From an uncultured Candidatus Saccharibacteria bacterium (GTDB lineage: Bacteria; Patescibacteriota; Minisyncoccia; Phycocordibacterales; UBA2163), in assembly GCA_964575575.1 (NCBI GenBank), contig CAZNQQ010000005.1:1-39523 (forward strand): a stretch of DNA of 39,523 bases. Reading direction: 5' to 3'. Under the pieces are notes generated by a model. It searched no databases and was not told the origin of the DNA. It was given only the letters and a program-made list of their open reading frames with translations. A program made the position numbers and the translations under genes. Below, in pieces: positions 7,030 through 39,386 of the stretch. The number at the start of each line of letters is the position of its first letter. Position 1 is the first letter of the stretch.

Positions 7030-7626
7030 TTAAGCCCCAATGGTTACATTTATCTTTTTAAACTCTTTTTTAGCCCTATGTACCCTTGTTTTTATGGCTC
7101 CTACAGACACACCTTCCATCTTTGCTATTTCTTCTTGCGGTCTTCCTTCTATAAAATGAAGTTTAAGTACCCTACCTAGATGCTCGGGCATACGAGACAA
7201 AACAGAAGTAATATAATCTTCGGTCTCCCCTTTCTCAAACTGTTGTGTCTTAGTGTCTGCCATTACCTCATACCACTCTGGGTCAGGGTTAAACACCGCA
7301 CCTCTGTGCTTCTTCATCTTCTGATAACGTGTAAAAGCAGTGTTAAGAAGTATCTTATACCCCCACGACTTGAACGACGCACCCTCTTGTACTTGGAATT
7401 TATCTGCGTATCTATATATTTTAGTAAAAGCTTCTTGCACTATGTCTTCTGCGTCTTCACGACTGCCCAACACAGACTGCGCTTTACGCAAAAAAGCATC
7501 CTGATATCTATCAAGTAAAATACCAAAAAGGTATGGATGATTTATAGACAACGCCAAAATTTCTTCGTCGCTTTTATCCATATAATCTTCTTTTCCGCCA
7601 GCTGGCGGATTATCGTTTAGAAACAT
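7030..7626 (-). CDS. ECF-type RNA polymerase sigma factor
   Basis: Region 2 DAEDIVQEAFTKIY...FKSWGYKILLN; region 4 EEIAKMEGVSVGAIKTRVHRAKK. Confidence 0.93.
   Translation of the reverse strand: MFLNDNPPAGGKEDYMDKSDEEILALSINHPYLFGILLDRYQDAFLRKAQSVLGSREDAEDIVQEAFTKIYRYADKFQVQEGASFKSWGYKILLNTAFTRYQKMKKHRGAVFNPDPEWYEVMADTKTQQFEKGETEDYITSVLSRMPEHLGRVLKLHFIEGRPQEEIAKMEGVSVGAIKTRVHRAKKEFKKINVTIGA
7594..7611 (-). repeat. In-frame palindromic element (NPPAGG), copy 1
   Basis: TCCGCCAGCTGGCGGATT, identical at 25857 and 39042. Confidence 0.9.
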
Positions 7627-7755
7627 TAAATGTACTGTACAACATGCAGTGCATTTTGTCCACCTATTAAAACCGACCTCTCTATTTTTTAAAACGTCTA
7701 AGATATTCGAAAGTTACGATGAACTTTAATATAAAGATATAATGTTGTGAGATAT

Positions 7756-7953
7756 TTACTGTATAGTAAAAGGAAGTAGCGCCATAAATCTAGCTCTTTT
7801 GATAGCTGTGGCAAGTTTTCGCTGTTCTCTAGCAGTTGCACCTGTATTCATACGCTGTGTTATACGTCCGTGAGTTTTTAGGAAATTCTTAAGAAGCTCT
7901 ACATCTTTGTAGTCTACGTGTTTTATATTATTTTTTGTAAAAAAGTTTTGCAT
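7756..7953 (-). CDS. rpsR: 30S ribosomal protein S18
   Basis: VDYKDVELLKNF...GRI...TG...QRKLATAIKRARFMALLPF; rpsF-ssb-rpsR order. Confidence 0.96.
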   Translation of the reverse strand: MQNFFTKNNIKHVDYKDVELLKNFLKTHGRITQRMNTGATAREQRKLATAIKRARFMALLPFTIQ

Positions 7954-7974
7954 CTTTAAAATTATTATTGATAT

Positions 7975-8424
7975 TTAAAATGGTATGTCTTCTGGTTTAA
8001 TATCTTCTTCTGGATATTCTATATCCGCTGCTGGCGCCTGCGCCTGTGGTACATCTGCACCTCCTGTTGACACAGTTGCGCTTGGCGCACCTGCACCTCC
8101 TGCTCTTGGGCCAAACTGTACACGGTCTGCAACGATCTCTGTACGGTATTTCTTCACGCCGTCGCTCTCCCAACTTCTTGTTTGCATTCTACCTTCTACA
8201 AGTGCTGAGCTTCCCTTTTTCAGATACTGTGCGACAGTCTCTGCTTGTCTTCCAAAGACAACAATATTATGAAACTCCGGGCTTTCTTGCTTTGCTCCAT
8301 CTTTGTCTTTCCAAACACGGTTTGTCGCAATAGAAAAGCTGGTCACTTGAGTACCAGAAGGAAGAGATTTTAGCTCTGGGTCTCTGGTTAAATTTCCGTA
8401 TACTAATGCTTTGTTTAAATACAT
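7975..8424 (-). CDS. ssb: Single-stranded DNA-binding protein
   Basis: LNKALVYGNLTRDPELK, VEGRMQTRSW, C-terminal EDIPF. Confidence 0.98.
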   Translation of the reverse strand: MYLNKALVYGNLTRDPELKSLPSGTQVTSFSIATNRVWKDKDGAKQESPEFHNIVVFGRQAETVAQYLKKGSSALVEGRMQTRSWESDGVKKYRTEIVADRVQFGPRAGGAGAPSATVSTGGADVPQAQAPAADIEYPEEDIKPEDIPF

Positions 8425-8437
8425 ATGATTTATTATA

Positions 8438-8977
8438 TTATTCTACTACCAATTCCTCAATAGTTTTATCAAGCTCTTCTTCTGACACCGGGGCTTTAAT
8501 TTCTACTTCTGGTGCTTCCACAGACTTTTCCTGTCTGCCGGCAGGCAGAGGTTTGTCTTTCTTAGGTTCATCTTTTGCAAAGACAACTGTTTTAGGTGCA
8601 AGAGTTGATTCTTTAACTGTTTTTATTATCAAAAACCGTAGAACGTTTTTATTAAGATCTATTCCCTCTTTAACATTTACAATACTGTCAGTTTTCATCT
8701 CAAACTTTATCCAACCGAAAGAAGCTGTATCAAACTTTTTAATCTTTCCTTCAATGTTTTTTACAATAGTATATGCAAGAGTTATAGGCTTTGGGAATTC
8801 GTCAGCTATAAAAGTACCACCATTGCTCTCTATTAGAGATTTGATACTATCTACCTCTTTACCAAGATCTGCCTCCTCTACAGTAGGCACAATATGAAAA
8901 CCGACCTCATATACTTGAGTCTCGGCCTCTTCAGCACTATCTTGTGCAATATCTTCTTTTATAACGTCTTCTGCCAT
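8438..8977 (-). CDS. rpsF: 30S ribosomal protein S6 with acidic extensions
   Basis: YEVGFHIVP...LAYTI.K...VLRFLIIK; position upstream of ssb. Confidence 0.92.
   Translation of the reverse strand: MAEDVIKEDIAQDSAEEAETQVYEVGFHIVPTVEEADLGKEVDSIKSLIESNGGTFIADEFPKPITLAYTIVKNIEGKIKKFDTASFGWIKFEMKTDSIVNVKEGIDLNKNVLRFLIIKTVKESTLAPKTVVFAKDEPKKDKPLPAGRQEKSVEAPEVEIKAPVSEEELDKTIEELVVE
8531..8548 (-). repeat. In-frame palindromic element (LPAGRQ) in the rpsF tail
   Basis: CTGTCTGCCGGCAGGCAG, an 18-bp near-perfect GC-rich palindrome in AT-rich context. Confidence 0.7.
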
Positions 8978-9024
8978 GTAAAAAGCATATTAGCACAGAG
9001 GCTTTTATAAAGCAATAGAAAGCA

Positions 9025-9834: not shown

Positions 9835-9849
9835 AAACTCAATTGTAAC

Positions 9850-9890: not shown

Positions 9891-9896
9891 GTACAT

Positions 9897-19998: not shown

Positions 19999-20006
19999 TT
20001 CCCGCA

Positions 20007-24335: not shown

Positions 24336-24360
24336 CATAACTCTTACGTCTTATATAATC

Positions 24361-24401
24361 AAAATCTCATTCACCGAGAGATATCAGGTGAGTGAGATTT
24401 T
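24361..24401. terminator. Bidirectional terminator
   Basis: AAAATCTCATTCACC-loop-GGTGAGTGAGATTTT between convergent genes. Confidence 0.8.
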
Positions 24402-26075: not shown

Positions 26076-26089
26076 TCCATTTAGTATAC

Positions 26090-26126
26090 AAATAAACGCC
26101 TAAAATAGCTATTTAGGCGTTTATTT
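26090..26126 (-). terminator. Terminator-like hairpin after the MazG-like gene
   Basis: AAATAAACGCCTAAA-N7-TTTAGGCGTTTATTT. Confidence 0.75.
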
Positions 26127-26135
26127 GGCTTAAAT

Positions 26136-26465
26136 TTACCTATTATCTCCGTCTGCATGTAATACACCTCTGTCATTACGAGATGCTAATTTCTCTATGT
26201 TGTTTGTTGCAACATCGTCTAATTCTAAATCAAGCTCTGTCGACATTTGGGCTATATACCACAAGACATCTCCCAATTCTTTTTTAATTTCCTGTACCTG
26301 ATCAGCAGTTAATTTTGTTTGACCACTACGTAACACTTTTTTGATCTTATTAGCTACTTCTCCCGCTTCTCCAGCTAAGCCAAGTGTTGGGTAAATAAAG
26401 TTGTTTCCACTATCTTTATATATAGCTGTCTTTTTAGCTTCTTTTTGATATTCATTAAAATTCAT
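26136..26465 (-). CDS. MazG-like all-alpha NTP pyrophosphohydrolase
   Basis: MNFNEYQ...YPTLGLAGEAGEVANKIKK...KKELGDVLWY...NIEKLASR. Confidence 0.92.
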   Translation of the reverse strand: MNFNEYQKEAKKTAIYKDSGNNFIYPTLGLAGEAGEVANKIKKVLRSGQTKLTADQVQEIKKELGDVLWYIAQMSTELDLELDDVATNNIEKLASRNDRGVLHADGDNR

Positions 26466-26550
26466 ATGTATATTATACCATTAAAATTAAGCTGATATTG
26501 TACAGTATAGTCAACTTACTCTATATACATATACATTGTATACTTTTATT

Positions 26551-27450
26551 ATGAAACACAAACTGACTCTCAAAAAGACAGTTGGCCTTAACGATTTACG
26601 TAAAGTATTAAGAAAAGTTAAGTTCAGAGGGCTTTATAACAAAAAAGGTGGGGAGCTGTATCCATACAAGAACGCAAAAATCTCAATTGCAACACTTTAC
26701 CCTCAAAAAGAAATGGGTGGCTCACCCGCCATTAAAGTAAATGGGAAAAACGAACCCCTCTTCTCTCCACAGCCGACAATATACGAAAACCAATTAGACA
26801 TTATAAAAACTTTGCATAAATTTCTAGAGAGTGAGGGACTTTCAATAAACGAACTAAAAGAAGCTGTGGAATATGAATGGAAAGGAAGAGGAGACTTTCA
26901 TGTACTGCCACCAATTATTGAAACTCACACGTATGATCTAAAAGATGGATTTTTTGATTTAGATAAACTAACCAACAGATTTAAAAATCGTTTTGTAAAA
27001 GATGCAGCAGGAAACTTGCACGATCTTTCAAAACGATACTTGAGCTCGTTCCATATAGATGAAGTAAGCAAACTTAACCACTTAGATATTTTTCATTCAA
27101 ACGCACCGCTTATTAACTACGGACTTCAGTACAACGGGAAGCATACGTTTCATATAGTGTGTGATGGTATGCACAGGATAGACTACGCCATAGAAACGCT
27201 TAACAAACCCATAAAAGTATTGCTTATAGAGACCGGTAACAAAACACCTCTTATGCCGTATTATGCCTTTCCTGTGCCGTTTAGACCAACTATACGACTC
27301 TCAAGTAAGCGCTCTGAGAAAATGTACCCACGCATTGAAAGAGATAAGATACATCTTTTCAATAACTTCATAAAAAAAGTAATGCACTACGACTGGACAG
27401 AAGGCGGTCTCAATGTAAGCAGCCTTCGCACTAAAACAGAGATTAACTAA
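26551..27450 (+). CDS. Hypothetical protein with a ParB/sulfiredoxin-like motif
   Basis: LPPIIE...IVCDGMHRIDYA....KPIKVLLI resembles the ParB/Srx PI.V...DG.HR signature; likely start ATG 26551. Confidence 0.55.
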   Translation: MKHKLTLKKTVGLNDLRKVLRKVKFRGLYNKKGGELYPYKNAKISIATLYPQKEMGGSPAIKVNGKNEPLFSPQPTIYENQLDIIKTLHKFLESEGLSINELKEAVEYEWKGRGDFHVLPPIIETHTYDLKDGFFDLDKLTNRFKNRFVKDAAGNLHDLSKRYLSSFHIDEVSKLNHLDIFHSNAPLINYGLQYNGKHTFHIVCDGMHRIDYAIETLNKPIKVLLIETGNKTPLMPYYAFPVPFRPTIRLSSKRSEKMYPRIERDKIHLFNNFIKKVMHYDWTEGGLNVSSLRTKTEIN

Positions 27451-27452
27451 AT

Positions 27453-28331
27453 ATGGATTTTGATACACAAAGACTAAAAGATGCACTAAACTTGTGTATC
27501 ATAAAAAAAGAAGAGGACAAAAGGATCGCTTCTATCGCATACTCAAAAAGTGGTAAGAGTTATAGTGGAGCACACATAGGTTCTGACACAAACTTGTTGA
27601 GTATATTTTCTGAACAAGTTGCGCTTTTGGGCGCAATGCAGAACAATGACTTTCAAATAGAAAGTGTCGTCACTATGTTAGAGACACCTAACGAAAAAGA
27701 AATTATTTCTCCCATAATAATAAAATTACTTATAGACTTCGCTAGGAGAACTGGTCAAGACATAAAATATACAGTTATAGATCGGGAAGGAAACATGCTT
27801 TTCAACATAGACAATATATCTTCCATTCTTCCATTCTACAAACCTGAGCGTGTTTTTTTAAAAAAGGTTGAGAACACAGAAATACAATCCAACAAAGCAA
27901 AACTTCCTAAAGATTCTGAAATAAAAGATGTGTTAAAAAAATACGCTGTTATAGGTGTAGACAGAAACTTTCCAAGATACGACTGTGCAAGTGGTTACGG
28001 AACTGCAGTAATAACAAAAAGTGGTAATGTTTATTTTAGTGGACAGTATTCAAGTTTTGACAAAGGAATGAATGTTCACTCCGAAATGGCAGCTGTAATA
28101 TCTGCAATTATGGAAAAAGACACAGAGATAACACACATAGGAGTTGTTTCTACAAAATACACAGACAGCCCAGCTCATATGTGCGGATGTTGTAGACAGT
28201 TTTTAGCAGAGATGATGAGTAGGTTTAATATAAATCCAGAACTGTTTCTTTTTGCAAAAGATACTGATGTTTATGAAAAAAGAAATATGAATGAATATTT
28301 ACCAGACATTTGGACAAGTAAAAAATGGTAA
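27453..28331 (+). CDS. Tandem cytidine-deaminase-fold protein (N-domain degenerate, C-domain with Zn motif)
   Basis: C-domain YGTAVITKSGNVYFSG...VHSEMAAV...HMCGCCRQFLAE...EYLPD.W; N-domain SKSGKSYSG...FSEQVAL lacks the CxxC. Confidence 0.85.
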   Translation: MDFDTQRLKDALNLCIIKKEEDKRIASIAYSKSGKSYSGAHIGSDTNLLSIFSEQVALLGAMQNNDFQIESVVTMLETPNEKEIISPIIIKLLIDFARRTGQDIKYTVIDREGNMLFNIDNISSILPFYKPERVFLKKVENTEIQSNKAKLPKDSEIKDVLKKYAVIGVDRNFPRYDCASGYGTAVITKSGNVYFSGQYSSFDKGMNVHSEMAAVISAIMEKDTEITHIGVVSTKYTDSPAHMCGCCRQFLAEMMSRFNINPELFLFAKDTDVYEKRNMNEYLPDIWTSKKW

Positions 28332-30733
28332 ATATGAAGACAAACTTCCCAGTAATAGACGCTCTACTTTTAACCCCCAATGAAGGCCGTGGTGGCGAAA
28401 TAGGTATATGTACCAACACCACTGCTTCAGGGCAAGTTTTAAACGAAATAGACAACAAGTACAGAAAGCAGGTCTCTGTACTTGGTTCCCTTATAGTAAG
28501 CCGTGATGGCACAGAAAGGATGATCATAAACTCCCTAGCCCACCCTACCGTTACTTATCTGATACTGTTCTCAGAAGAATCTATAACCTTCTCTCCAAGC
28601 ACAAACTTGCTACAGGCAATACAAAAAGGATTCGAGAAAAATGTTTCGGGTAATTATATAAGAGACGGAGTAGCTGCAAGTGCGCAGTACCCAAATATAT
28701 CCGAGCAGATATTTGACGCTTTTAAAGACAGTATAGTAGTACTTCCTGTTTTTGTGTCTAAAAACAAAGAAAGTAAAAAAATAGTAAACTCATACTTGAA
28801 AATATTAAAGCCAAAAGTTCCAAAAGAAGTTTATGAAACTATCGTAAAGATAAACAATAAGAAAAAAATCTACTACGACTCTTTAAACGAACTTTTAGAA
28901 AGTTTACAAAAAGTAAAACACAAAAAGAAAACTGTTCCATATCTTAATGCAAAAGACTTTCAGCATTTGCAACCACCAAGGATAGTGCTTAAAGAAAGCA
29001 AAACAAAAAAGAAAGTTCCTTTCAAAGTAACAGCAGAAGATGGAATGGTACGTGTTGATATTCAAATACATGATAAAGTGTATTATATTAAAGCAAAGAC
29101 AGAGTTTCATTTGGAGTATTCTCTTATGAAATTTTTAGGAAAAGACAAATCTATATTGTCTATAGAAGAACAAATACTTCTTGGTGCAGAAATCGGACGT
29201 GTCGGTACAGAAATAGCAAACAATATCTCTATCCCCTCTCTTGTACAAAAGAACAACATAGTAGGCAAAAAAGAAATCCACCTTGAGTCTAGTATGAACC
29301 TAAAAGTAGACAAAAAGTATTATTACAAAATCAGTACAAAAGACAAAAAGGTTTCTTGTATGTGTATGGCTTTTGATATATGCGAAGAAGTATTTGAATT
29401 ACAATCAAAAAGTATTTCTTCAATAATAAAAAGGTTGGCAGAGCTAAATAGATTTGAAAACTATGAGATGGATATACTACACAGGATGGACATAGGAACA
29501 CAACTTGGAAGAGCGTATGTTGCGTCAAGTAAAAACTATTCTTTCATACAAGACTTTTCAAATATCTTCCAGATAAACACAAGTGACTTACCGTTTGTTA
29601 TAGCAGATGGTGACAACTTCCTAGATGTACACAAATCAGTACTTCAGCAAATATATACCAAAGGCATCACTGAAGAACATGGCGATGTATGGAAAGGACC
29701 AGCTAGAACAGCCTCTGTTTTAGCCATTTATAGAGATTCCCAGAACGCTCTTAAGACAATGCCTATGCTATACAAGCAAGGCGATGATTCTACCAAAGTA
29801 ATGCGTGAGTCATATAAGAAACAGCTTTTGCGTTTTGACAGCGACGGTTCATATAGCTATGGAGAGCGAACTAGATCTTTCTTTGATTTTGACCAACTTA
29901 AAAATACTATAAAAGTCTTAAAGAAAAACAAAAACAAAGCTACCGTAGTCCAAAGGTTTGACCCAACACGAGATATGGGTACATATGTTGAAAAAGAGAC
30001 TGGTATAACAAAATTCACACACGACCCATGCCTTACACACGATATATTTTTTATAAAAAACAATAAATTATATTCGTTCCATATAGCACGTGCACACAAT
30101 ACAGTAAACGCATACCCTGAAAATATATTTGGTCTTTATGATGCATATGCAACAACTATTAGAAAATCATTGAAAATAAAAGGTGGTGATATGTTTATGC
30201 TTTCAAACAGAGCAAATATTCTCCTCCTTACAGAAGAACAAAAAACAAAAAGAATACTTGGTGAACCTTCAAAACCACTTGATCATAAGAGTGACAAATC
30301 TATAGGGCCACACCTGGTTGGTAAAAATGTAAAAACACCGAAAAAGTCAGGTGGAATAGTATATGAACATCTTAATTTGAAAATAATTACTAAAAGACCG
30401 AAAAATAAAATACTTGATGCTCTTGAAAACCTAAAAGGTGTGAATACTATCGCGCGAGCGATAACATATTTGAAAGAAAAGGGTGTGATGCACAACAACA
30501 CAGTACTTTCAGACTATGTGGCCGGTGAGTCTGACCCACAAGATGATGTACTTGCATTCTTCCAAGCAAATATATTTGGAGACAAGCTTCATGCTACTGC
30601 AGTGTTTACAAACAGAGCGCTTTCAAACAAAACCAAAGACATAGAGATGTGTAACTATATTGCAAGCAAACATGCAAAAGAGTTGAAAAGTAAACTCGGA
30701 ACACTTACACTGTTCTACATAGCATACAAATAA
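28325..30733 (+). CDS. Multidomain MtrA-like + DUF4346-like + thymidylate-synthase-like protein
   Basis: GTERMIINSLAHPTVTYLILFSEE (MtrA-like); DKKYYYKI...LHRMDIGTQLGRA...FIQD (DUF4346-like); YSYGERTR...DQL...DPCL...RAHN...YPEN (TS fold). Confidence 0.75.
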   Translation: MVNMKTNFPVIDALLLTPNEGRGGEIGICTNTTASGQVLNEIDNKYRKQVSVLGSLIVSRDGTERMIINSLAHPTVTYLILFSEESITFSPSTNLLQAIQKGFEKNVSGNYIRDGVAASAQYPNISEQIFDAFKDSIVVLPVFVSKNKESKKIVNSYLKILKPKVPKEVYETIVKINNKKKIYYDSLNELLESLQKVKHKKKTVPYLNAKDFQHLQPPRIVLKESKTKKKVPFKVTAEDGMVRVDIQIHDKVYYIKAKTEFHLEYSLMKFLGKDKSILSIEEQILLGAEIGRVGTEIANNISIPSLVQKNNIVGKKEIHLESSMNLKVDKKYYYKISTKDKKVSCMCMAFDICEEVFELQSKSISSIIKRLAELNRFENYEMDILHRMDIGTQLGRAYVASSKNYSFIQDFSNIFQINTSDLPFVIADGDNFLDVHKSVLQQIYTKGITEEHGDVWKGPARTASVLAIYRDSQNALKTMPMLYKQGDDSTKVMRESYKKQLLRFDSDGSYSYGERTRSFFDFDQLKNTIKVLKKNKNKATVVQRFDPTRDMGTYVEKETGITKFTHDPCLTHDIFFIKNNKLYSFHIARAHNTVNAYPENIFGLYDAYATTIRKSLKIKGGDMFMLSNRANILLLTEEQKTKRILGEPSKPLDHKSDKSIGPHLVGKNVKTPKKSGGIVYEHLNLKIITKRPKNKILDALENLKGVNTIARAITYLKEKGVMHNNTVLSDYVAGESDPQDDVLAFFQANIFGDKLHATAVFTNRALSNKTKDIEMCNYIASKHAKELKSKLGTLTLFYIAYK

Positions 30734-30734
30734 A

Positions 30735-31403
30735 ATGATTGATTATAAAAACAAAATTAAAGTTATTGGTTTTGATTTAGACCAGACACTATACCCCAAA
30801 TCCCCAAAGATAGACGAGGCTATACAGGGCTATATATATGAAAAGATAGCTAAGCATAGGGGGTGCACTCTAGAGGAGGCGGAAAAGCTGTTTAAAGACC
30901 TGTACAAAGAGGGTTCTGGGCTTTCTGGGACAAGTACACTGAAAGAACTTGAGATACCAGGTGCAACAGATATAGTGCAAGAAGCGTTAGAAAATGCTGA
31001 CATAGCGGAGTTTTTAGCTCCTAATAACGAAGTATTTGAGCTTTTAAATAAATTGAAAGAACGGTATAAAAATATAGATTTAATAACTGGCTCTGATCAA
31101 CAAAACGCATTTCAAAAAATGGAGCATATGAATATCTCAAAGGAAATGTTCTCAAACATAATTACAGGGGATGTAGCGTCCAAGTCAGACGGAAGTGCAT
31201 TTGAGCTTTGGATGTCATATTATAATGACATATCTCCAGAAGAATTTTTATATATCGGCGACAGACCTTCTTCTGACTATTTCGCTCCAAAAGAATTAAA
31301 TATAAATGCAATCCTAGTAAATGTACCAAAGGAAAAAGCGGACACTGATATACAGTGCCCGCAACTCTCTTCCCTAAAAGATTTGAAGGATTATTTACTA
31401 TAA
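30735..31403 (+). CDS. HAD-superfamily hydrolase (nucleotidase/phosphatase-like)
   Basis: Motif I FDLDQTLY, motif II ITGS, motif III K, motif IV YIGDRPSSD. Confidence 0.92.
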   Translation: MIDYKNKIKVIGFDLDQTLYPKSPKIDEAIQGYIYEKIAKHRGCTLEEAEKLFKDLYKEGSGLSGTSTLKELEIPGATDIVQEALENADIAEFLAPNNEVFELLNKLKERYKNIDLITGSDQQNAFQKMEHMNISKEMFSNIITGDVASKSDGSAFELWMSYYNDISPEEFLYIGDRPSSDYFAPKELNINAILVNVPKEKADTDIQCPQLSSLKDLKDYLL

Positions 31404-31976
31404 AAATAATTTATTTTTTGTTTCATCATCTAGTGATATCCATACAAAATAAGTAGTAATACCTGTCTTTTTATTATACTCAGTATATCCATCTTCTTTA
31501 AACTGATCGTATGTGAGAAAAACTATTCTGTCACTGAAAATAGGTTTTCTTTCAAGACCAGGGTAACTAATGGTATCTAAAGTATCTAGACTAAGGCTAT
31601 CGCGAGTTTCTTGCTTGATTTTACTTTCGATTCCGAGTTCCTCAGCAACAGCTCTTTCCGCAACTTTTTCAAACTCTTCCTCTATAGAAAACTTTTCGCT
31701 TATATGTAAAAGATTTCTTTTCCTTCCACGCCCATCATCAAACACCTGCTTTGACTCTTTAAGAATGAGTGATTTATTGTTTTTGTAATAAATTACATGC
31801 ACCCTCATTATAGATACCTCTCTATGAATACCCTTTTTTGAAATTACAAGTCTACAATCTCCATTACTTGTTTCATCTAATAGGTTTTGCATAGTTTTTG
31901 CTTCACCTTTACCAAATTTCTCAATTGGGATATTAAATGAATCAAGTAATTTCGCTAAATTATTAACATCAAACAC
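31398..31976 (-). CDS. Hypothetical protein with a Nudix-like box
   Basis: SEKFSIEEEFEKVAERAVAEELGI resembles a degenerate Nudix motif; SYPGL. Confidence 0.55.
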   Translation of the reverse strand: MFDVNNLAKLLDSFNIPIEKFGKGEAKTMQNLLDETSNGDCRLVISKKGIHREVSIMRVHVIYYKNNKSLILKESKQVFDDGRGRKRNLLHISEKFSIEEEFEKVAERAVAEELGIESKIKQETRDSLSLDTLDTISYPGLERKPIFSDRIVFLTYDQFKEDGYTEYNKKTGITTYFVWISLDDETKNKLFL

Positions 31977-32020
31977 TCTGCATCCACCTTTCTTTCAATA
32001 AATTTTAATTTTTAAACACC

Positions 32021-32053
32021 AAAAAACTCCCCATACATTACTGTATGAGGAGC
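32021..32053 (-). terminator. Terminator after rplK
   Basis: Minus strand GCTCCTCATACA-GTAA-TGTATGGGGAG-TTTTTT. Confidence 0.8.
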
Positions 32054-32082
32054 TTAAAGTCAATCAATAATTGAGTTTTATA

Positions 32083-32508
32083 TTAAAGGTCAGTTTCGAT
32101 CCCCATGCTTCTTGCAGTTCCTGCTATGATCTTTGCGCCTTGTTCTGGGTCGTTTGTGTTTAGATCTGGAAGTTTTTTATTAGCTATGTCTACAAGCTGC
32201 TGTTTTGTAGCTTTCCCAACTTTACTTGTTACATTCTTACCTGAACCTTTCTTGATACCAAGTGCTTTAAGAAGCAGTCTTGATGCAGGCGGAGTCTTAA
32301 GTACAAAATCAAAGCTTCTGTCTTCATACACTGAAATCACAACCGGGATCACGTCTCCCATCATATCTTTCGTAGCGTCGTTGAAGCGAGTTACGAACTC
32401 ACCAATGTTGATCCCAGCTTGTCCAAGTGCTGGTCCTACAGGTGGAGCAGGGTTTGCTTTACCTGCTTCTATCTGAAGTTTTAATTTTTTTTCTGCTTTC
32501 TTTGCCAT
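32083..32508 (-). CDS. rplK: 50S ribosomal protein L11
   Basis: [37 protein letters not shown]. Confidence 0.99.
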
Positions 32509-32546
32509 AATGTTTTAAAATTTTGTAATTTTTAATTTTGTAATTT

Positions 32547-33092
32547 TTAAATCTTTTTAACCTGAAGGAAGTCTAGCTCTACAGGTGTCTCTCGTCCAAA
32601 CATTGATACAAGAACCTTAATCTTGCCCTTGTCATTATCAACCTCTGCAACCTTTCCGTCCATCTCTTTAAACGGTCCGTCTATTATAGTCACTGCGTCA
32701 GATACTGCAAGCTCTATCTTATGTTTTACATCGTCAGATTCCATTCTCTTTAGAAGTGAGTCTAGCTCTCCTTTTGAAAGTGGTACTGGGTGAACTCCTG
32801 AACCTACAAACCCTGTAACACGAGGAGTGTTACGTACTACATACCAAGAGTCGTCGTCTACTATCATATCTACCAATATGTACCCTGGGTATATCTTTTC
32901 CTCTTCTTCTACCCTTTTCCCTCCCTTTATCTTGATCTGCTTTTCAGTTGGTACGATAACATCAAATATTTTGTCTTCCATACCTAAAGACTCAATACGC
33001 TGACGCAAGTTGCGCTTCACCGCATTTTCATAACCTGAATATGTATGGATCGCATACCAATTTCTATTTTGTGCTGTGTCTTGTTTTGCCAT
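32547..33092 (-). CDS. nusG: Transcription termination/antitermination factor NusG
   Basis: WYAIHTYSGYE, YPGYILVDM, VRNTPRVTGF, KOW motif IIDGPF, MFGRETPVELDF. Confidence 0.99.
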   Translation of the reverse strand: MAKQDTAQNRNWYAIHTYSGYENAVKRNLRQRIESLGMEDKIFDVIVPTEKQIKIKGGKRVEEEEKIYPGYILVDMIVDDDSWYVVRNTPRVTGFVGSGVHPVPLSKGELDSLLKRMESDDVKHKIELAVSDAVTIIDGPFKEMDGKVAEVDNDKGKIKVLVSMFGRETPVELDFLQVKKI

Positions 33093-33101
33093 AGTTATTT
33101 T

Positions 33102-33281
33102 TTAGATAACAAACGTTTCTAGTAAATACGAAAAGATAAAGTCAAAGAACCCTAAAAGCGCTGCTGTGAAAAGCGAGATTATGATAACAAGCGCTGTAAA
33201 CACTATAGCTTGCCGTCTTGTTGGCCAGCTTACGTGCTTTAATTCTCCCCTTGTATCCTTGATATAATTGATTAATTTCAT
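33102..33281 (-). CDS. secE: Preprotein translocase subunit SecE (59 aa; not in the ORF track)
   Basis: Manual translation MKLINYIKDTRGELKHVSWPTRRQAIVFTALVIIISLFTAALLGFFDFIFSYLLETFVI; upstream of nusG. Confidence 0.96.
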   Translation of the reverse strand: MKLINYIKDTRGELKHVSWPTRRQAIVFTALVIIISLFTAALLGFFDFIFSYLLETFVI

Positions 33282-33343
33282 AATTTTGTATTAAAAAACA
33301 CCCCTCGGGCGTTATATATATACTACTTATTTTGAGGAAATAG

Positions 33344-33382
33344 TCAACCCTGCTAGAAATCGATGATTTCTAGCAGGGTTGA
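33344..33382. terminator. Perfect 18-bp-stem hairpin
   Basis: TCAACCCTGCTAGAAATC-GAT-GATTTCTAGCAGGGTTGA, downstream of the small ORF. Confidence 0.7.
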
Positions 33383-33396
33383 TATTATGTAGATGA

Positions 33397-33621
33397 TTAT
33401 TCTTCTTCTTTCTCTACTTTATACAGCAATCTTCTAACATAATCCTCAATCTTTGCCTCACAAATTAAACAATCTTTATTTGCAAAATATGAAAATATTC
33501 TACTGGAAAGTCTTTGGCGTTTTATGTTTAACTTTGTAGCGCACTTATTAATACAATTAAACAATTCATTTTTTATCTCAACACTCTTTATCTCTGCATC
33601 AACAGTTCCAGTCAAAAGCAT
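33397..33621 (-). CDS. Small hypothetical protein (two CxxC-like pairs)
   Basis: 74 aa with SD AAGGAG; CINKC and CLIC. Confidence 0.55.
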   Translation of the reverse strand: MLLTGTVDAEIKSVEIKNELFNCINKCATKLNIKRQRLSSRIFSYFANKDCLICEAKIEDYVRRLLYKVEKEEE

Positions 33622-33692
33622 AACACACTCCTTCCTTAAAAGATTAGTACTAAGAAATTGTGAACAATTTATTATCTCTATTTATTATATCA

Positions 33693-34508
33693 CTATCTTA
33701 TCTCGTAAGTAATACTTACATTAGAAGTGATCTTATTCTCTCCAACTGGGATTTCAGGAATCCCACCACCTACTGAGTCCATCACCGCCATCTCTGGCAC
33801 TGCAAATGTTTTGAACCTTGGACTGTTGCCAAACTCTGAGAAGCTTACCACTCGCACAAGCTTAACATCTAAATCTTTTGCAAGTTGTTTTGCTTTTACT
33901 TGCGCATCTTCTATAGCGATCTTTCGTGCTTCTTCTTGTAGATCGTCTTCATCGTCAATAGTGAAGCTAAGACCACTTACATTGGTCGCACCACGCTCAC
34001 CAATACCAGAGAGCACAGTACCTGCATCTTCTGTGTCACGAACCTTTACAGAAATACTCTGACTAACTTCAAATCCTTTGAGTACTCGCTCCCCACCTGG
34101 CGGACAAATACCACCCGAACAATTTTCTCTCACAAATTCATAACGTGGGTACACATTATAATTTGTAGTTTTTATATCTGTCTCTTTGACATCACTCTTT
34201 TTAAGAAAATCTAAAATACTATTTACTCTTTGTGCTGCGATCTCTTGCGCCTCTGTTACAGTCTCTTTCTCCTCAACTACAGAGAATGAAAACTCTGCAA
34301 TGTCAGCTACCGCAAACACCTCCCCCTCACCTGACACATTGATAGTGTTTGTCGCAGAGATCCCTCCGCCGATAAATCTATACTCTTTTATAGTATTAAG
34401 TGTCTTAAATACAAGAAATACTGCAAGTACTAGAAGTACAAGTACGAGCATCTTTTTTGCTCTTCTTCCCCCAAAAGAACAGCAATTATTGTTTGTTTCG
34501 TTATGCAT
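33693..34508 (-). CDS. SIMPL (DUF541) domain protein
   Basis: TINVSGEGEVFAVADIA, DIKTTNYNVYPRY, GATNVSGLSF, ARKIAIEDAQVKAKQLA, VSITYEI. Confidence 0.92.
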   Translation of the reverse strand: MHNETNNNCCSFGGRRAKKMLVLVLLVLAVFLVFKTLNTIKEYRFIGGGISATNTINVSGEGEVFAVADIAEFSFSVVEEKETVTEAQEIAAQRVNSILDFLKKSDVKETDIKTTNYNVYPRYEFVRENCSGGICPPGGERVLKGFEVSQSISVKVRDTEDAGTVLSGIGERGATNVSGLSFTIDDEDDLQEEARKIAIEDAQVKAKQLAKDLDVKLVRVVSFSEFGNSPRFKTFAVPEMAVMDSVGGGIPEIPVGENKITSNVSITYEIR

Positions 34509-34587
34509 AGTTTATAAATTTAGCTTGATAATATACATATAATATATACCCCTCTATTATAAAAGGCAATTATGCTATTATCTATAT

Positions 34588-35367
34588 ATGAGCACTATAG
34601 CTATATACGCATTTTCAAGTGTAATAATAGTAAGCCTTATCTCTCTGGTGGGCTTATTTTCACTTGGCTTAAAGCAAGCATTCTTAAAGAGAATAACATT
34701 CCTACTTGTTAGTTTGTCAGTGGGTGCGCTTTTTGGCGACGCTATAATCCACCTTATACCTGAAGCTTTAGACAAAATAGGGAATACATCTACAGCATCA
34801 CTTGCAATACTTGTCGGTATAATGCTTTTCTTCGTACTTGAAAAGTTTATACGTTGGAATCATTCACACGAACACAACTGCGAGACAGATGAATGCAAAA
34901 AAAGACAAGGCGACAAAATCCACCCCATGGGACCACTTATACTTACGTCAGATGCACTGCACAATATGATAGACGGTATAATTATAGGTGTTAGTTATTT
35001 TATAAGTATTGAAGTTGGTATTGCGACAACTATTGCTATAGTCTTACACGAGATACCACAAGAGATCGGGCACTTCGCAGTTCTTATTCATTCTGGGTAT
35101 AGTAAAGCAAAAGCGATTTTGTTTAATTTCCTTTCATCTCTTTCTGCAATACTTGGTACTGCTTTAGTTTTCATATTTGGACAAACGATTGAAGCTCACA
35201 TACCACTACTTATCGCTTTTGCTGCAGGTGGCTTCCTATACATCGCAGGTTCTGACCTCGTACCAGAGCTTCATAAGACATCTAAGACAAAGCACTCCCT
35301 CCTACAGTTCATCGCTATCATAATCGGCATCGGCATAATGTTCGCACTTTTAGGGTTTGAGATATAA
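34588..35367 (+). CDS. ZIP family zinc/metal transporter
   Basis: GALFGDAIIHLIPE, His-rich loop, DALHNMIDG, LHEIPQEIGHF, AAGGFLYIA.SDLVPEL. Confidence 0.95.
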   Translation: MSTIAIYAFSSVIIVSLISLVGLFSLGLKQAFLKRITFLLVSLSVGALFGDAIIHLIPEALDKIGNTSTASLAILVGIMLFFVLEKFIRWNHSHEHNCETDECKKRQGDKIHPMGPLILTSDALHNMIDGIIIGVSYFISIEVGIATTIAIVLHEIPQEIGHFAVLIHSGYSKAKAILFNFLSSLSAILGTALVFIFGQTIEAHIPLLIAFAAGGFLYIAGSDLVPELHKTSKTKHSLLQFIAIIIGIGIMFALLGFEI

Positions 35368-35411
35368 AACAAAAAATCCCTAGGGTTAACCCTAGGGATT
35401 TTTTGTTTTAT
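35364..35411. terminator. Perfect 48-bp palindrome, bidirectional terminator
   Basis: ATAAAACAAAAAATCCCTAGGGTT|AACCCTAGGGATTTTTTGTTTTAT between convergent genes. Confidence 0.85.
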
Positions 35412-35810
35412 TTAAGCTCCGAAACCAAAACCGTTGTAAGCCATATATGCACCTAAGATTATATAGATAATCCCAAATGTTTTATAGAGCTTCATATTGT
35501 TCATCTTCCTAACCCATGAGACCCATGTATTGTGCGGTAGCAAGAAGTAAGTCGCACCCTTTACTAAGATCAACCACCCTACTATCGTTGCAATAATAGT
35601 AGGCGTACCACCTGTCCATACGTTGTGATTTAACACAACTATAAGACCCATAATAAGAGTTAGGATACCAGCAAGATACGCTATAGCTACATGTTCATGC
35701 TCCATAAGGTGCTTTACCACATGTTGCCACTCTTTTGTCTTAATCAGTGCAGATATACCGACTACTAGAAAGTAGATACCGACAATCTGCACAAGAAATA
35801 TTGATTCCAT
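35412..35810 (-). CDS. Small integral membrane protein
   Basis: Four hydrophobic segments; GLIVVLNHNVW...GWLILVKG. Confidence 0.75.
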   Translation of the reverse strand: MESIFLVQIVGIYFLVVGISALIKTKEWQHVVKHLMEHEHVAIAYLAGILTLIMGLIVVLNHNVWTGGTPTIIATIVGWLILVKGATYFLLPHNTWVSWVRKMNNMKLYKTFGIIYIILGAYMAYNGFGFGA

Positions 35811-35842
35811 ATTATTAAAAGTTAGCTATTAATACTTATATT

Positions 35843-36934
35843 TTATAATGTTTGTATTTCTAAATCCACTTCTCTATCCACCTCTACTGCCTCAAACTTA
35901 ACCCTACCTAGAAGCTGGTTGCGTTTAGTTACTACATCCACACGCCACTGCCCCACAGGGACATTAGACTTCACAGTATACCCACGGTAACCGCCGTCAC
36001 GCCCACCTGAAATACCAAACCCTATCTTATTACTCTCTATCCATTCTTTTTGTTCTTCATCATAATACTGCCATTTGTGGTAAATCTCCGTATTGAGTCT
36101 TGTCGGTGCAAAGACAGAACTAAAAACATACACTGGCTCACCTGAAGAAACATAAACTGTATTGTTTGGTATCAAAAAGTCATACCATTTTTCTACTTCA
36201 CTTATTGCAAGATAATTATTGTCCACTGTTCGTTCTATATAGTAGTGCGCACTCGCCTCTTTAAGTGACAACGGTATAGGAGGAATAATATTTGTAAAAT
36301 AAAAAACGTTTATCAAAATAAAAATACTACCAACACTCCACGTTAGTGCGTTTTTACTTTTCTTTATACGAGTTGGTATAAAAAATTTAAGAAATTTAAC
36401 CAACAGAACCATTAACGCAATACTTATGATCCCACTTAGTATAAAAATAGGAACACCGATAGATTTAGTTATAACAGGTATATAGAAAATCAGAAATGAA
36501 AATAACGCTGTAAAGAAAATACTCATCCTAAAAGTAAATCTTGCGTACTTTTTCTTAAAAAATTCATTGCCTATAAGAAGCGCCACTAGTAAAAGTATAA
36601 ATGGCCAACTTGACGCAAGAGTTGCACTTCGTGAATAGAAAATCACAAAACCAGAGAACAAAGCTCCAAATGCAAATTGCATTGCAATAGGTGCTATAAA
36701 TCTAACTTTTTCAAAAAATCTAGTTTTTAATATCCCTTCTTCATAGAAATTAATGAAGATGATAGAAAGGAGCGCTATAACTAGATACACACCAAGTACT
36801 ATGTTTTCAAACAAGAGATCGATCCTTGTTAATGTAAAGTTATCTATTATAAAACCAAACAAAAGAGCTCCACCGATAATATACCGCTCATTGCGTTTGT
36901 AAAACTCTTTATATTTTTGAAACAGGGACTTCAT
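35843..36934 (-). CDS. DUF2914-domain membrane protein
   Basis: Multi-TM N-terminus, YFTNIIPPIPLSL, VFAPTRL...YHKW, ISGGRDGGYRGY, GQWRVDV. Confidence 0.8.
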   Translation of the reverse strand: MKSLFQKYKEFYKRNERYIIGGALLFGFIIDNFTLTRIDLLFENIVLGVYLVIALLSIIFINFYEEGILKTRFFEKVRFIAPIAMQFAFGALFSGFVIFYSRSATLASSWPFILLLVALLIGNEFFKKKYARFTFRMSIFFTALFSFLIFYIPVITKSIGVPIFILSGIISIALMVLLVKFLKFFIPTRIKKSKNALTWSVGSIFILINVFYFTNIIPPIPLSLKEASAHYYIERTVDNNYLAISEVEKWYDFLIPNNTVYVSSGEPVYVFSSVFAPTRLNTEIYHKWQYYDEEQKEWIESNKIGFGISGGRDGGYRGYTVKSNVPVGQWRVDVVTKRNQLLGRVKFEAVEVDREVDLEIQTL

Positions 36935-36935
36935 T

Positions 36936-37012
36936 TGGGGTGATCGATGGGATTCGAACCCACGACAACCGGTTCCACAAACCGGGGCTCTACCAGCTGA
37001 GCTACGACCACC
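36936..37012 (-). tRNA. tRNA-His(GUG) with encoded G-1 and CCA
   Basis: GGTGGTCGTAGCTCAGCTGGTAGAGC-CCGGT TTGTGGA ACCGG-...GGTTCGAATCC...CACCCCA. Confidence 0.97.
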
Positions 37013-37015
37013 ATA

Positions 37016-37552
37016 TTATTTATAGTCCGGAGACTCTTCAGTTATACCAGATAAATGGCTAGTTAGTCTAGCGAGTGCATACAAGACACTTGAAAGACGG
37101 TTTAGATACTGAAGCGTATATGTACCTATTCCTACATCGCCAGCTTCATATACTGCAACAACCCTTCTCTCTGCTCTTCTTGAAAGTGTGCGCGAAAAGT
37201 CAAACAATGCTCCAAGTTCTGTACTACCAGAGATGAAAAAGCTATTAATCTCTGGTAATTCGTTTTCTATGTCATCAATTATACCCTCCACTTCTTTAAC
37301 CTTGTCTTCTGTAACAGATCCTGTACTACCTGCAAGCTCTGCTTGCACTATGAAAAGATTTTTCTGAATATCGTGGATTATTTCTTCAAAGTTAAACCCC
37401 TGTTCTTTTGATTTAACTTTGCATAACCCCAAATACGAATTTACTTCGTCCATGCTACCAAGCGCTTCTGATACAGCAGAGCTTTTTGATATTCTTTGGT
37501 CACAACCAAAAGTTTTGGTAGTGCCGTCATCACCTTTGCGAGTATATAACAT
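37016..37552 (-). CDS. Cob(I)alamin adenosyltransferase, PduO-type
   Basis: LYTRKGDDGTT, ALGSMDEVNSYLG, SRTLSRRAERR, YLNRLSSVLYALAR; start ATG 37552. Confidence 0.92.
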   Translation of the reverse strand: MLYTRKGDDGTTKTFGCDQRISKSSAVSEALGSMDEVNSYLGLCKVKSKEQGFNFEEIIHDIQKNLFIVQAELAGSTGSVTEDKVKEVEGIIDDIENELPEINSFFISGSTELGALFDFSRTLSRRAERRVVAVYEAGDVGIGTYTLQYLNRLSSVLYALARLTSHLSGITEESPDYK

Positions 37553-37576
37553 CAGTTCATTATAGCAGAAAAGATA

Positions 37577-37614
37577 AAAGGCTTGTATGTGACTACGAAA
37601 TACACACAAGCCTT
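37577..37614 (-). terminator. Hairpin after the small orphan ORF
   Basis: AAAGGCTTGTATGT-loop-ACACACAAGCCTTT. Confidence 0.6.
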
Positions 37615-37636
37615 TAATTTGTAAAATACCTATTTA

Positions 37637-37852
37637 TTATTTCTCAGTTGGTCGTTCAAGCTCTTCTGACATAATTTCTTTAATTGTACCCATTGATACT
37701 GAATCCTTAAAAGAGTCTCCGCGAATAGTTTTACCTATATCATTTGAAAGCTTTAAAGATTCAGTAGTGTCTGGATTCGAAACGCCGTCTTCTGCCGTCT
37801 TTTTAGCATTTTTTTCAGAAGCAGTATCTGTTTTATCTCCTGCCCAAACCAT
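37637..37852 (-). CDS. Small hypothetical protein
   Basis: 71 aa with a strong SD AAGGAGGT and a downstream hairpin. Confidence 0.6.
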   Translation of the reverse strand: MVWAGDKTDTASEKNAKKTAEDGVSNPDTTESLKLSNDIGKTIRGDSFKDSVSMGTIKEIMSEELERPTEK

Positions 37853-37957
37853 ACATAACCTCCTTCAATAAATTAGTATTATTTAAAATTCTCTTTATTT
37901 TTGAGAATACAACTATCTAAATAAATACTAACACATATTAAAGTGTCTGTAAATATG

Positions 37958-38041
37958 TGCCCAGGACTGGAGTCGAACCAGCACAGGATTGCTCCCACTA
38001 CCCCCTCAAGGTAGCGCGTCTACCAGTTTCGCCACCTGGGC
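37958..38041 (-). tRNA. tRNA-Leu(GAG), CCA not encoded
   Basis: GCCCAGGTGGCGAAACTGGTAGACGCG-CTACC TTGAGGG GGTAG-long variable arm-GGTTCGACTCC..CCTGGGCA. Confidence 0.96.
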
Positions 38042-38614
38042 TTATTTAGCTTCTTCTTTAGGTTCCTCTGGCTTTTCTTCTACCTTCTCTTCAACTTTTT
38101 CTTCTACTACCTCTTCTTTCTTTTCCTCTTTAGTTTCTTTTACCTCTGCTTCTTTAGCTTTTTCTTCCTCAGCTTTTTTGGCAGCCTCTTCGTCCGCTAC
38201 TTTTTTATTAGCTTCTTCTGTATCACTCACTGTCTGCATATCTACTATCATAGTATTTCTCATTTGTCGTCTTATTTCTTTCGCTGCTTTTTCACGAATA
38301 TGATAAAGTTTCGCTCTTCGCACCTTTGAACGTTTTACAATTTCTATTTTATCTATAATTGGAGAATATAGTGGGAAGATCTTCTCTACACCTACACCAC
38401 TTGCAACCTTTCTTACTGTGAAAGTTGCTCCAGCTTCGTTGCCATGTTTATGTGCAAGCACAAGTCCTTCAAATGCCTGAAGTCTTGTCTTGCCTTTTTC
38501 TTGGATCTTCTGCCACACACGCACAGTATCTCCAGCTCTTATGCCGAGTTTCTGCCTGCTCTCCATATTTACTGGAGAAACCTTTCTTATTGATGTAGCT
38601 TCTGTTGTAGCCAT
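38042..38614 (-). CDS. rplS: 50S ribosomal protein L19 with an acidic C-terminal tail
   Basis: [48 protein letters not shown]. Confidence 0.97.
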
Positions 38615-38666
38615 AATGATAGACACTTTAACACAATGAACTCAAATTAGCAATAATTAGCCCTTT

Positions 38667-39386
38667 TTAAAGCGTTTCGACTGCTTTTTTAAAGTCTTCT
38701 GGTAAATCAGCCTCTATTATCGTCTTTTCACCATCTAGCATAGAAAGCGTAATAAGCCTTGCATGGAGCGCTAATCGCTCAAAACCAAGCGCACAGTCAC
38801 GCTTTGGGGCATATAGCTTGTCACATACTACTGGGTAATTTATTGCCTTTAGGTGCACCCTGATCTGGTGAGTCCTACCTGTTTTTGGTGACACTTCTAG
38901 ATATGAGAAATCTTTATTCTTATTTAATACTTTGTAGTCTGTTACAGCTTCACGCATCTCTCCACGCGCTCCTCGTTGTGCTGACCATCTTCTGAAATCA
39001 CTTTTGCTCTTTCCTATTGGTCTATCTATCGTTCCTTTCTCTCCGCCAGCTGGCGGATTGAGTGCACCATAGACAAATGCGTTGTAAGTTTTTTCTATTT
39101 CTCTTCCTTGAAATTGTTTTTTCAAATTCTCAAACGACTCCTGCGTCTTCGCAAGCACTATTACCCCTGAAGTCTCTCTGTCTAACCTATGTACTATCCC
39201 TGGACGTGCTATTTCTTTGCCATCGTACATTGCCGGTTCACCTACACTTTCCATCTCTGGATAATTTTCAACCACCCAGTCAGCCAAACTCGGTTCTTTG
39301 GTCTTGCCGTCAGAATGCACGACAAGACCAGCTGGTTTATCAACCGCTAATACTTCGTCGTTTTCAAATAGTATTGGAATTTCCAT
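38667..39386 (-). CDS. RluA/RluD-family pseudouridine synthase
   Basis: VDKPAGLVVH, GIVHRLDRETSG, TGRTHQIRVHL, LALHA. Confidence 0.96.
   Translation of the reverse strand: MEIPILFENDEVLAVDKPAGLVVHSDGKTKEPSLADWVVENYPEMESVGEPAMYDGKEIARPGIVHRLDRETSGVIVLAKTQESFENLKKQFQGREIEKTYNAFVYGALNPPAGGEKGTIDRPIGKSKSDFRRWSAQRGARGEMREAVTDYKVLNKNKDFSYLEVSPKTGRTHQIRVHLKAINYPVVCDKLYAPKRDCALGFERLALHARLITLSMLDGEKTIIEADLPEDFKKAVETL
39042..39059 (-). repeat. In-frame palindromic element (NPPAGG), copy 3
   Basis: TCCGCCAGCTGGCGGATT inside the RluA-family gene. Confidence 0.9.

Follow-up and report, generated by a model that had tools for sequence, protein, structure and literature searches.

The window analysed in this study is a stretch of 39,523 nt that constitutes contig C5 (CAZNQQ010000005.1) of the genome of an uncultured Candidatus Saccharibacteria bacterium (GCA_964575575.1; 615 kb on 31 contigs, 97.7% complete; hereafter G000). 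Three of its genes, encoding a sigma-70-family (ECF-like) factor, an arginyl-tRNA synthetase (ArgRS) and a RluA-family pseudouridine synthase, each contain one exact copy of the 18-mer AATCCGCCAGCTGGCGGA, which lies on the minus strand and reads NPPAGG in all three cases (Table 1). The core of the 18-mer, TCCGCCAGCTGGCGGA, is perfectly palindromic over 16 bp, of which 12 are G+C, in a window and a genome of approximately 37% G+C. With up to three mismatches allowed, 0.01 occurrences of the 18-mer were expected from shuffled windows, and the observed number was reached in none of 100 shuffles. This is in line with an earlier note on the same DNA, which had reported the positions of the three 18-mers, their common frame and the palindromic core and had regarded them as being beyond chance; the three hosts named there were recovered by Pfam. 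The copy in the sigma factor gene occupies codons 6 to 11 of an N-terminal extension. Since this extension is also present in congeners, the copy is probably translated. Logan contigs obtained from four runs of two marine/seawater studies cover positions 20000 to 39418 of the window with zero differences. The ArgRS and RluA copies are located in this part and were rebuilt identically, while the sigma factor copy falls outside; the agreement is not independent evidence, because the runs may include the source sample.

The motif is a dispersed repeat at the DNA level and not a protein motif. In G000, ten perfect 16-mers were found together with two copies containing one mismatch, none with two and three with three mismatches (0.8 of the latter in shuffles); these counts are lower bounds, since approximately 1.2 kb of the genome are N. 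TCCGCCAGCTGGCGGA is the commonest palindrome of at least 12 nt in this genome and the commonest 12-mer that is not A-rich low-complexity sequence, with a density of about one copy per 60 kb. Among the 11 copies listed first, which omit the second one-mismatch copy (12 in all), ten are located in long open reading frames (ORFs), all of them in the PPAGG frame and none in the SASWR or RQLA frame. Besides the three proteins mentioned above, the hosts appear to be the cysteinyl- and leucyl-tRNA synthetases (CysRS and LeuRS, the copy in the latter being decayed to NSPAGG), DnaK (C-terminal tail), a ComM-like protein, a metallo-beta-lactamase-fold protein, an acetate-kinase-like protein and an ORF of 579 residues, as judged from conserved flanking peptides. 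The eleventh copy is non-coding and located on contig C3 in a spacer of 229 nt, the 5' leader of rplJ; it is common to G000 and its congener G007. The earlier claim that intergenic copies are lacking is thus correct for the window and incorrect for the genome. With Rfam at gathering thresholds, no family was detected in five loci with non-coding copies, including the rplJ leader. The half-site TCCGCCAG occurs 31 times on both strands of G000, approximately 20 of these occurrences coming from the palindromes themselves, and half-sites are barely above chance according to our own estimate of the chance figure.

Among the congeners of G000 (G001 to G009), the motif is distributed unevenly. The exact 14-mer was counted 10, 0, 1, 9, 0, 0, 0, 7, 1 and 27 times in G000 to G009, respectively, and 31 genomes belonging to other families within the order had 0 to 6 copies. 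With the reversed control, zero matches were obtained in the congeners and in these 31 genomes. Four of the nine congeners are without an exact copy, namely G001, G005 and G006, which are 96–100% complete, and G004 (59% complete). In a tree of ArgRS and RluA, the genus is divided with 98% support into G000, G007, G009 and G005 on one side and G001, G003, G008, G002, G004 and G006 on the other, while the branching inside the former group has a support of 42–47%. Both sides hold motif-rich and motif-free genomes, and G005, 100% complete and grouped with G000, contains zero copies. In an even sampling of 401 Patescibacteria genomes, searched with the 16-mer and a reversed control, the motif was found in 75 genomes (1 to 33 copies per positive genome, without relation to genome size) and the control in one. 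Presence depends strongly on the family: some families are mostly positive, others are negative throughout (0/23 or 0/11). A scan of GTDB with one genome per species returned at least 120 stretches with the motif, the groups of which were counted by hand. Among those listed, 69 are Patescibacteria (Saccharibacteria, many lineages of Parcubacteria and Microgenomates, Berkelbacteria, Kerfeldbacteria and WWE3) and 43 belong to other groups, mostly Bacteroidota (22) and metagenome-assembled genomes (MAGs) of Gammaproteobacteria (10) and Bdellovibrionales (5). Viral contigs of IMG/VR contain 56 copies in 55 stretches, mostly in GC-rich genes and in the RQLA frame (27 RQLA, 17 PPAGG and 8 SASWR in ORFs of at least 80 aa; 4 in short ORFs), and merely 8 of the 56 have the AA/TT flank described below. 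A phage reservoir was rejected, as the viral copies resemble background in GC-rich genes. Literature searches, supplements excluded, revealed no described element of this kind in Patescibacteria, nor was the 14-mer found.

At orthologous positions, most copies of the motif have empty counterparts. The ArgRS genes of eight congeners all lack it and have two or four codons at the site, starting with AAA or AAG. In the seven full-length RluA genes of congeners it is absent as well; all have two codons there (AAA followed by GAA, GAG, AAT, GAC or AAA), corresponding to a net gain of 12 nt in G000. The sigma factor orthologue of the closest congener, G007, reads GAT AAA AAA GAC GAA AAT TTA at the site and is free of the motif. 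NPPAGG is a lineage-specific indel, a possibility raised in the earlier note. In the opposite direction, 25 distinct sites that are empty in G000 were found to hold a copy in G009, G003 or G007, with a gain of four codons at 15 sites, five codons at 5 and other lengths at 5. The LeuRS site, for example, reads TCT AAA AAA GAA in G007, G003 and G005 and TCT AAT CCG CCA GCT GGC GGA GAA in G009, and the CysRS site TCA AAA CCT in G005 and TCT CCG CCA GCT GGC GGA CCT in G000; in both cases the 16-nt palindrome stands in place of four A's. An AAA run is present in 18 of 31 empty sites compared to 15.9% of the in-frame dicodons of long G000 ORFs (binomial p = 1e-7), an enrichment to be read with the caveat that surface loops are Lys-rich anyway. 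Differences between filled and empty sites and the A-run status of the latter were counted and read by hand. If a 16-nt insert enters behind the second codon base, the frame is preserved only with 1, 4 or 7 target bases lost, which fits the observed gains of +15, +12 and +9 nt. Landing after 'AA' on the purine-rich sense strand would likewise explain why the tag is AAT and why copies in genes have a single orientation.

G009, G003 and G007 together have 40 copies located in ORFs of 100 aa or more, 36 of which show the reading xPPAGG or a form of it decayed in one residue, with x being mostly Asn (AAT) and otherwise H, Y, S, D, G, C, V, P or K. Three are in the RQLA frame (IRQLAE at one orthologous locus of G009 and G007, and one ORF without a counterpart in G000), and the remaining ORF is probably spurious. 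Seven further copies of these genomes are non-coding or in short ORFs. On exactly one side of nearly every copy in G000, G009, G003 and G007, coding or non-coding, AA(T) is found, so that the repeat unit is polar despite the palindrome. Of 77 copies in Patescibacteria stretches outside the genus, 35 are without a covering ORF of at least 150 aa, and the other 42 are read as PPAGG (27), RQLA (8) or SASWR (7). Several non-coding copies are situated at the tips of longer perfect hairpins, some of them terminator-like. In G068, one of the other genomes compared, three copies belong to a composite repeat of approximately 290 bp (91% identity between two contigs). In at least two of these, as well as in both copies of L263, the palindrome sits at the top of a longer hairpin measuring approximately 44 nt. 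As RNA, the 16 nt are predicted to form a 6-bp stem with an AGCU loop (about -11 kcal/mol). The motif positions are indel-prone in all protein alignments. In an AlphaFold2 model of RluA (alignment of eight sequences, mean predicted local distance difference test score 79.9), residues 110–115 are placed in a loop or turn between the strands 98–106 and 117–121.

Decayed copies were found among orthologues of LeuRS, CysRS and DnaK, which were fetched by protein similarity and hence without bias to perfect copies. CCG is changed to TCG in LeuRS of G000 and GCT to ACT in CysRS of G009; CysRS of G008 shows a symmetric shortening to TCT CCA GCT GGA, and in G006 and G004 only TCT CCG CC is kept as a relic. 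In DnaK, GCT is changed to GCC in G002 and to ACC in G003. At the third positions of the five four-fold degenerate motif codons, orthologous filled copies differ in 2 of 88 pairwise comparisons, in contrast to 356 of 634 in flanking codons. Part of this contrast is ascertainment, many copies having been found by exact match; low synonymous change was also seen in four groups fetched by protein similarity. Conservation of NPPAGG with synonymous variation, which the earlier note had named as the sign of constraint on the protein, was not seen; it is the nucleotides that are kept. Such a pattern would result from repeated insertion into the same hot spots or, alternatively, from nucleotide-level constraint. 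At the CysRS site, G000, G002 and G003 have a perfect copy, four genomes have a decayed one, and G005, G007 and G001 are 'empty' (TCA AAA). About four independent insertions at one hot spot could account for this, and equally an old insertion that stayed perfect in some lineages and gave way to A's in three. In SecA, the position KERL|NPPAGG|GE is filled in G009, G007 and a Saccharibacteria MAG and empty in G000, and in MiaA both G009 and a MAG named Humimicrobiaceae have the motif directly before GLSW. That the same SecA and MiaA positions are filled in very distant lineages favours recurrent hits on permissive A-rich sites, possibly alongside some constraint at the nucleotide level. Import of gene patches was rejected for SecA, as the flanking synonymous sites differ.

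Copy number is patchy between close relatives, copies decay, and they occur in coding and non-coding DNA across Patescibacteria. The motif is probably a very short, non-autonomous selfish palindromic repeat, copied at the DNA level and of the kind represented by repetitive extragenic palindromic sequences (REPs) and Rickettsia palindromic elements (RPEs). The AAT 'tag' would arise from landing of the palindrome behind 'AA' within A-tracts, and a few bases of the target, most often four, would be lost on landing (net +12). As A-runs (Lys codons) lie on coding strands, the copies in genes would mostly have one orientation. Purifying selection may then keep chiefly the N-P-P-A-G-G phase, a flexible hydrophilic turn tolerated in loops and termini, whereas the SASWR and IRQLAE phases would mostly be lost, and in gene-dense genomes of 0.4–1 Mb with little intergenic room the repeat may have become largely intragenic. 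Copying could be carried out by a sequence-specific enzyme acting in trans or, alternatively, by enzyme-independent, hairpin-assisted template switching between A-tracts. Of the interpretation given in the earlier note, the tiny mobile REP-like motif, the analogy to RPEs and the tolerance in loops and termini are upheld by patchy copy number, lineage-specific indels, decay and the loop position in RluA; the suggested functions in segregation and uptake and the RAYT (REP-associated tyrosine transposase) partner are not.

A number of results weigh against a selfish repeat. No target-site duplication was found at the pairs of filled and empty sites, where bases are lost instead, and inspection by eye of copies and site pairs revealed neither hidden duplications nor flanking homology; to our knowledge, loss of bases without duplication fits no described transposition chemistry. 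Neutral decay of insertions inherited from a common ancestor does not predict the ratio of 2/88 to 356/634. Outside the genus, the frame bias is weaker (27/42 in the PPAGG frame), and no empty allele was found in the Logan contigs of the four runs, contigs from which rare variants are dropped. That the same 16 nt recur in lineages very far apart speaks for their being recognised sequence-specifically by some factor, and no mobilising enzyme was found among RAYT-like, GIY-YIG and 23S rRNA intervening sequence (IVS) protein genes, none of which track the motif.

Neither a RAYT/HUH transposase, which the earlier note had proposed to look for, nor any other co-occurring protein could be tied to the motif. 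G000 encodes five paralogous RAYT-like proteins of 215–233 aa with HUH and Tyr motifs (E ~1e-10 to NCBIfam REP_Tyr_transpos, below the cut-off of this family), and none of the five genes is flanked by the motif. The gene on contig C26 is flanked on both sides by a different palindrome of 21 bp, an arrangement like that of a REPtron or TIRtron, and for the one located beside secA, synteny extends to G009 and G007, suggesting that these RAYT-like genes are domesticated and vertically kept. Matches to PF01797 were found in all five high-copy genomes first tested. In the phylum sample, they are present in 45 of 75 motif-positive and 145 of 326 motif-negative genomes (hand cross-tabulation); five genomes with 6 to 12 copies, two of them single-contig, are without a match to PF01797 or to the G000 protein, and G005 has five RAYT-like genes and zero motifs. 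A RAYT/Y1 transposase was therefore rejected as the driver, being dispensable for the motif and tracking it poorly. The same applies to the GIY-YIG nucleases, as their counts in the genus do not follow the motif: G009, with 27 motifs, has only a UvrC-type GIY-YIG match, while G006, with 0 motifs, has three small genes or gene fragments. The IVS-type protein, a four-helix bundle, was rejected for lack of tracking in the genus as well. Origin from a tRNA, by mimicry of the T-arm and the acceptor 3' end, was rejected, none of the G000 tRNAs containing the motif; with ARAGORN, no tRNA was detected at the motif in 12 multi-copy loci.

The motif may be smaller than any mobile element so far observed in bacteria, a 16-nt palindrome that is written sequence-specifically into A-tracts or spread by hairpin-driven template switching. 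This is a tentative reading, clearly less probable than that of a selfish repeat of the REP/RPE kind. It would mean that about 4 nt are swapped for 16 by an active, not yet recognised machinery, that the same loops (SecA, MiaA, CysRS) have been hit repeatedly from Saccharibacteria to Parcubacteria, that a Pro/Gly turn was added to core proteins of much of the Patescibacteria, and that the few synonymous changes reflect continual re-writing of, or homing to, the same sites. The main rival to a selfish repeat, a functional cis-acting site selected at the nucleotide level, bound as DNA by a dimeric protein or acting as an mRNA hairpin, for example in nucleoid organisation, replication/repair or self-marking in defence, would explain the near-zero synonymous change in orthologous copies as well; NPPAGG would then be the least harmful way of hosting a site that is kept where the cognate protein is present and decays where it is lost. 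The identity of the 16 nt between distant classes of Patescibacteria, the consistency at family level, a size and symmetry typical of dimeric operator-like sites, the stability of the predicted RNA hairpin and the clustering of decayed copies in genomes with few or no perfect ones (G008, G006, G004 and G002) are consistent with this. We regard it as unlikely in view of the absence of exact copies from nearly complete congeners, the species-specificity of most sites, including the at least 25 that are empty in G000, a decayed copy even in G009, which is richest in the motif, copies in junk such as pseudo-tRNA fragments, and a copy number that is unrelated to genome size; moreover, no candidate binding protein was found. 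A segregation site, as considered in the earlier note, is unlikely for the additional reason that G000 has a ParB gene and, within 2 kb, a separate cluster of what we take to be canonical parS sites (four sites, with 0, 1, 2 and 2 mismatches), which probably marks the origin region. The motif is unrelated to parS in sequence, and identity with it was rejected. An uptake-like signal is likewise unlikely with approximately one copy per 60 kb.

Still less probable is the absence of any dedicated element, with the palindrome arising as a by-product where breaks made by small homing-type nucleases (GIY-YIG or similar) are repaired, or being a terminal module of small gene cassettes, and with solitary copies being scars. 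Support for this comes from G035, another genome compared, in which two tRNA-Lys fragments, with the palindrome replacing eight bases, flank a small GIY-YIG gene inserted in the T-loop of tRNA-Lys, and from a Cyclobacteriaceae MAG with repeated 3' halves of tRNA-Met that contain the palindrome beside a small GIY-YIG gene. In G000, two small GIY-YIG genes adjoin tRNA-Tyr and tRNA-Gln. Ahead of each lies an incomplete 5' copy of the respective tRNA, whose D-arm region is split by another GC-rich hairpin; judging from its layout, which is the same in G035, this looks like a tRNA-targeting homing cassette. In G068, a gene of the IVS type adjoins the composite repeat at L262, with the palindrome at the apex of its longer hairpin. 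On the other side, a GIY-YIG-like ORF is located within 1.5 kb of the motif in only one of the 120 GTDB stretches listed, and neither GIY-YIG nor IVS-protein gene counts follow the motif counts in the genus. Selection of NPPAGG at the protein level, or an assembly or adapter artefact, might be suspected from the occurrence of the same peptide in many proteins and from the ability of chimeric reads to produce palindromes. Both are effectively refuted. A protein motif is incompatible with the nearly invariant codons, the non-coding and other-frame copies, the unrelated hosts and loop positions that are missing from orthologues. As regards an artefact, the ArgRS and RluA copies are identical in the assemblies of the four runs, possibly including the source sample, the motif is present in MAGs of many unrelated projects, and decayed versions stand at orthologous positions.

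Compared to known systems, the element behaves like RPEs and REPs without having the length, tag, extragenic location and RAYT linkage by which these are defined. RPEs are described as elements of about 150 bp that insert in-frame into ORFs (PMC10969869). Like these, the palindrome is a repeat placed in-frame in unrelated housekeeping ORFs of a small genome, with an added peptide that, for RPEs, is thought to be compatible with the protein fold (PMC10969869). Unlike RPEs, which comprise ten families and are restricted to Rickettsia, it is 16–18 nt long, has one sequence, adds net 4–5 residues, spans the whole phylum and occurs in some other phyla. With REPs, the element has in common a short GC-rich stem-loop, an asymmetric end tag and an abundance that varies between relatives. 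According to one report, REPs inside genes exist in several species, REPs of the CGTC type are without a dedicated transposase, and no obvious correlation is seen between tyrosine transposase genes and repeat families (PMC3733652). Unlike REPs, which are imperfect, mostly extragenic palindromes of 20–40 bp often present in hundreds of copies, the motif is perfect over 16 nt and present in 1 to 33 copies per genome. In place of the GTAG or CGTC tag it carries AA(T) at a single side. Most of its copies in this genus are intragenic and share one frame, and, unlike the repeats of REPtrons, it is not located beside the RAYT-like genes and is poorly tracked by them. Miniature inverted-repeat transposable elements, among them the QMITEs of Coxiella, ERIC and BOX, are non-autonomous repeats able to sit in genes, which is also true of the motif. 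Unlike these elements (70–300 bp, terminal inverted repeats of 15–30 bp, target-site duplication), it has no internal sequence, and target bases are lost. In size, symmetry, number (few to tens of copies) and intragenic position it is similar to parS and other chromosomal palindromes of 14–16 bp, and it is unlike DNA uptake sequences and uptake signal sequences, which are over-represented 9–12-mers occurring approximately once per kb. The GC-rich palindromic clusters of fungal mitochondria are short as well and spread in AT-rich compact genomes, sometimes in coding regions; they differ in being organellar, longer, of several classes and mostly non-coding.

If the motif is a selfish repeat, selfish DNA is able to persist in the most streamlined bacterial genomes, shrunk to six codons in protein loops, and core proteins such as aminoacyl-tRNA synthetases, SecA, DnaK and polymerases would have been repeatedly edited across a major phylum. 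Its mechanism must explain the loss of bases, the targeting of A-tracts, the sequence identity across phyla and the lack of a linked transposase. The motif furthermore provides a well-defined marker by which recent insertion and decay can be counted in mostly unculturable organisms. Marker genes acquire lineage-specific indels through the 18 nt, and the palindromes can interfere with assembly, with the design of primers and with alignment.

Table 1. Positions of the motif copies, their host genes and other features in the window (numbers without prefix), on other contigs of G000 (C) and at loci of the genomes G035 and G068 (L).
Feature	Position	Strand	Description
Motif copy 1	7594–7611	-	AAT + 15 nt of the 16-bp palindrome; N6-PPAGG11 of the sigma-70-family protein
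Motif copy 2	25857–25874	-	N68-PPAGG73, N-terminal add-on domain of arginyl-tRNA synthetase
Motif copy 3	39042–39059	-	N110-PPAGG115 of the RluA-family pseudouridine synthase
Sigma-70-family (ECF-like) factor	7030–7626	-	198 aa; Pfam Sigma70_r2, Sigma70_r4_2
Arginyl-tRNA synthetase	24402–26075	-	557 aa; Pfam Arg_tRNA_synt_N, tRNA-synt_1d, DALR_1
RluA-family pseudouridine synthase	38667–39386	-	239 aa; Pfam PseudoU_synth_2
tRNA-His	36936–37011	-	
tRNA-Leu(GAG)	37957–38041	-	
tRNA-Val(TAC)	39390–39465	-	
RAYT-like ORFs	C1:48937–49602, C9:12773–13474, C26:812–1513, C19:12093–12785, C2:5756–6403		G000
21-bp palindrome pair	C26:781–801, C26:1515–1535		on both sides of the C26 RAYT-like gene
Small GIY-YIG genes	C1:23257–23700, C11:11321–11800		adjoining tRNA-Tyr and tRNA-Gln, G000
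GIY-YIG gene in tRNA-Lys	L034:3680–4205		G035
Composite-repeat loci	L261:1406–1692, L262:1406–1694, L263:1056–1260		G068
Presumed parS cluster	C14:12960–14953		perfect site at C14:14688
ParB gene	C11:22412–22732		G000
AT-rich 16-bp palindrome	C3:13641, C3:37786, C3:38311, C4:20077		GTTAAC centre
Palindromes of ~26 bp	C1:56804, C6:35425, C7:16504, C9:25633, C26:3577		G000

Two other sets of palindromes were observed in G000 (Table 1). One is a second perfect 16-bp palindrome, AT-rich and with a GTTAAC centre, which occurs four times with a symmetry reaching approximately 26 bp and may, from its sequence and arrangement, be the operator of some regulon; the other is a group of palindromes of about 26 bp at five positions. 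Three tRNA genes are located in the last part of the window, where the depth of the Logan contigs climbs sharply over positions 37577–38227 and 38879–39523, probably due to tRNA sequences of other organisms mapping there.

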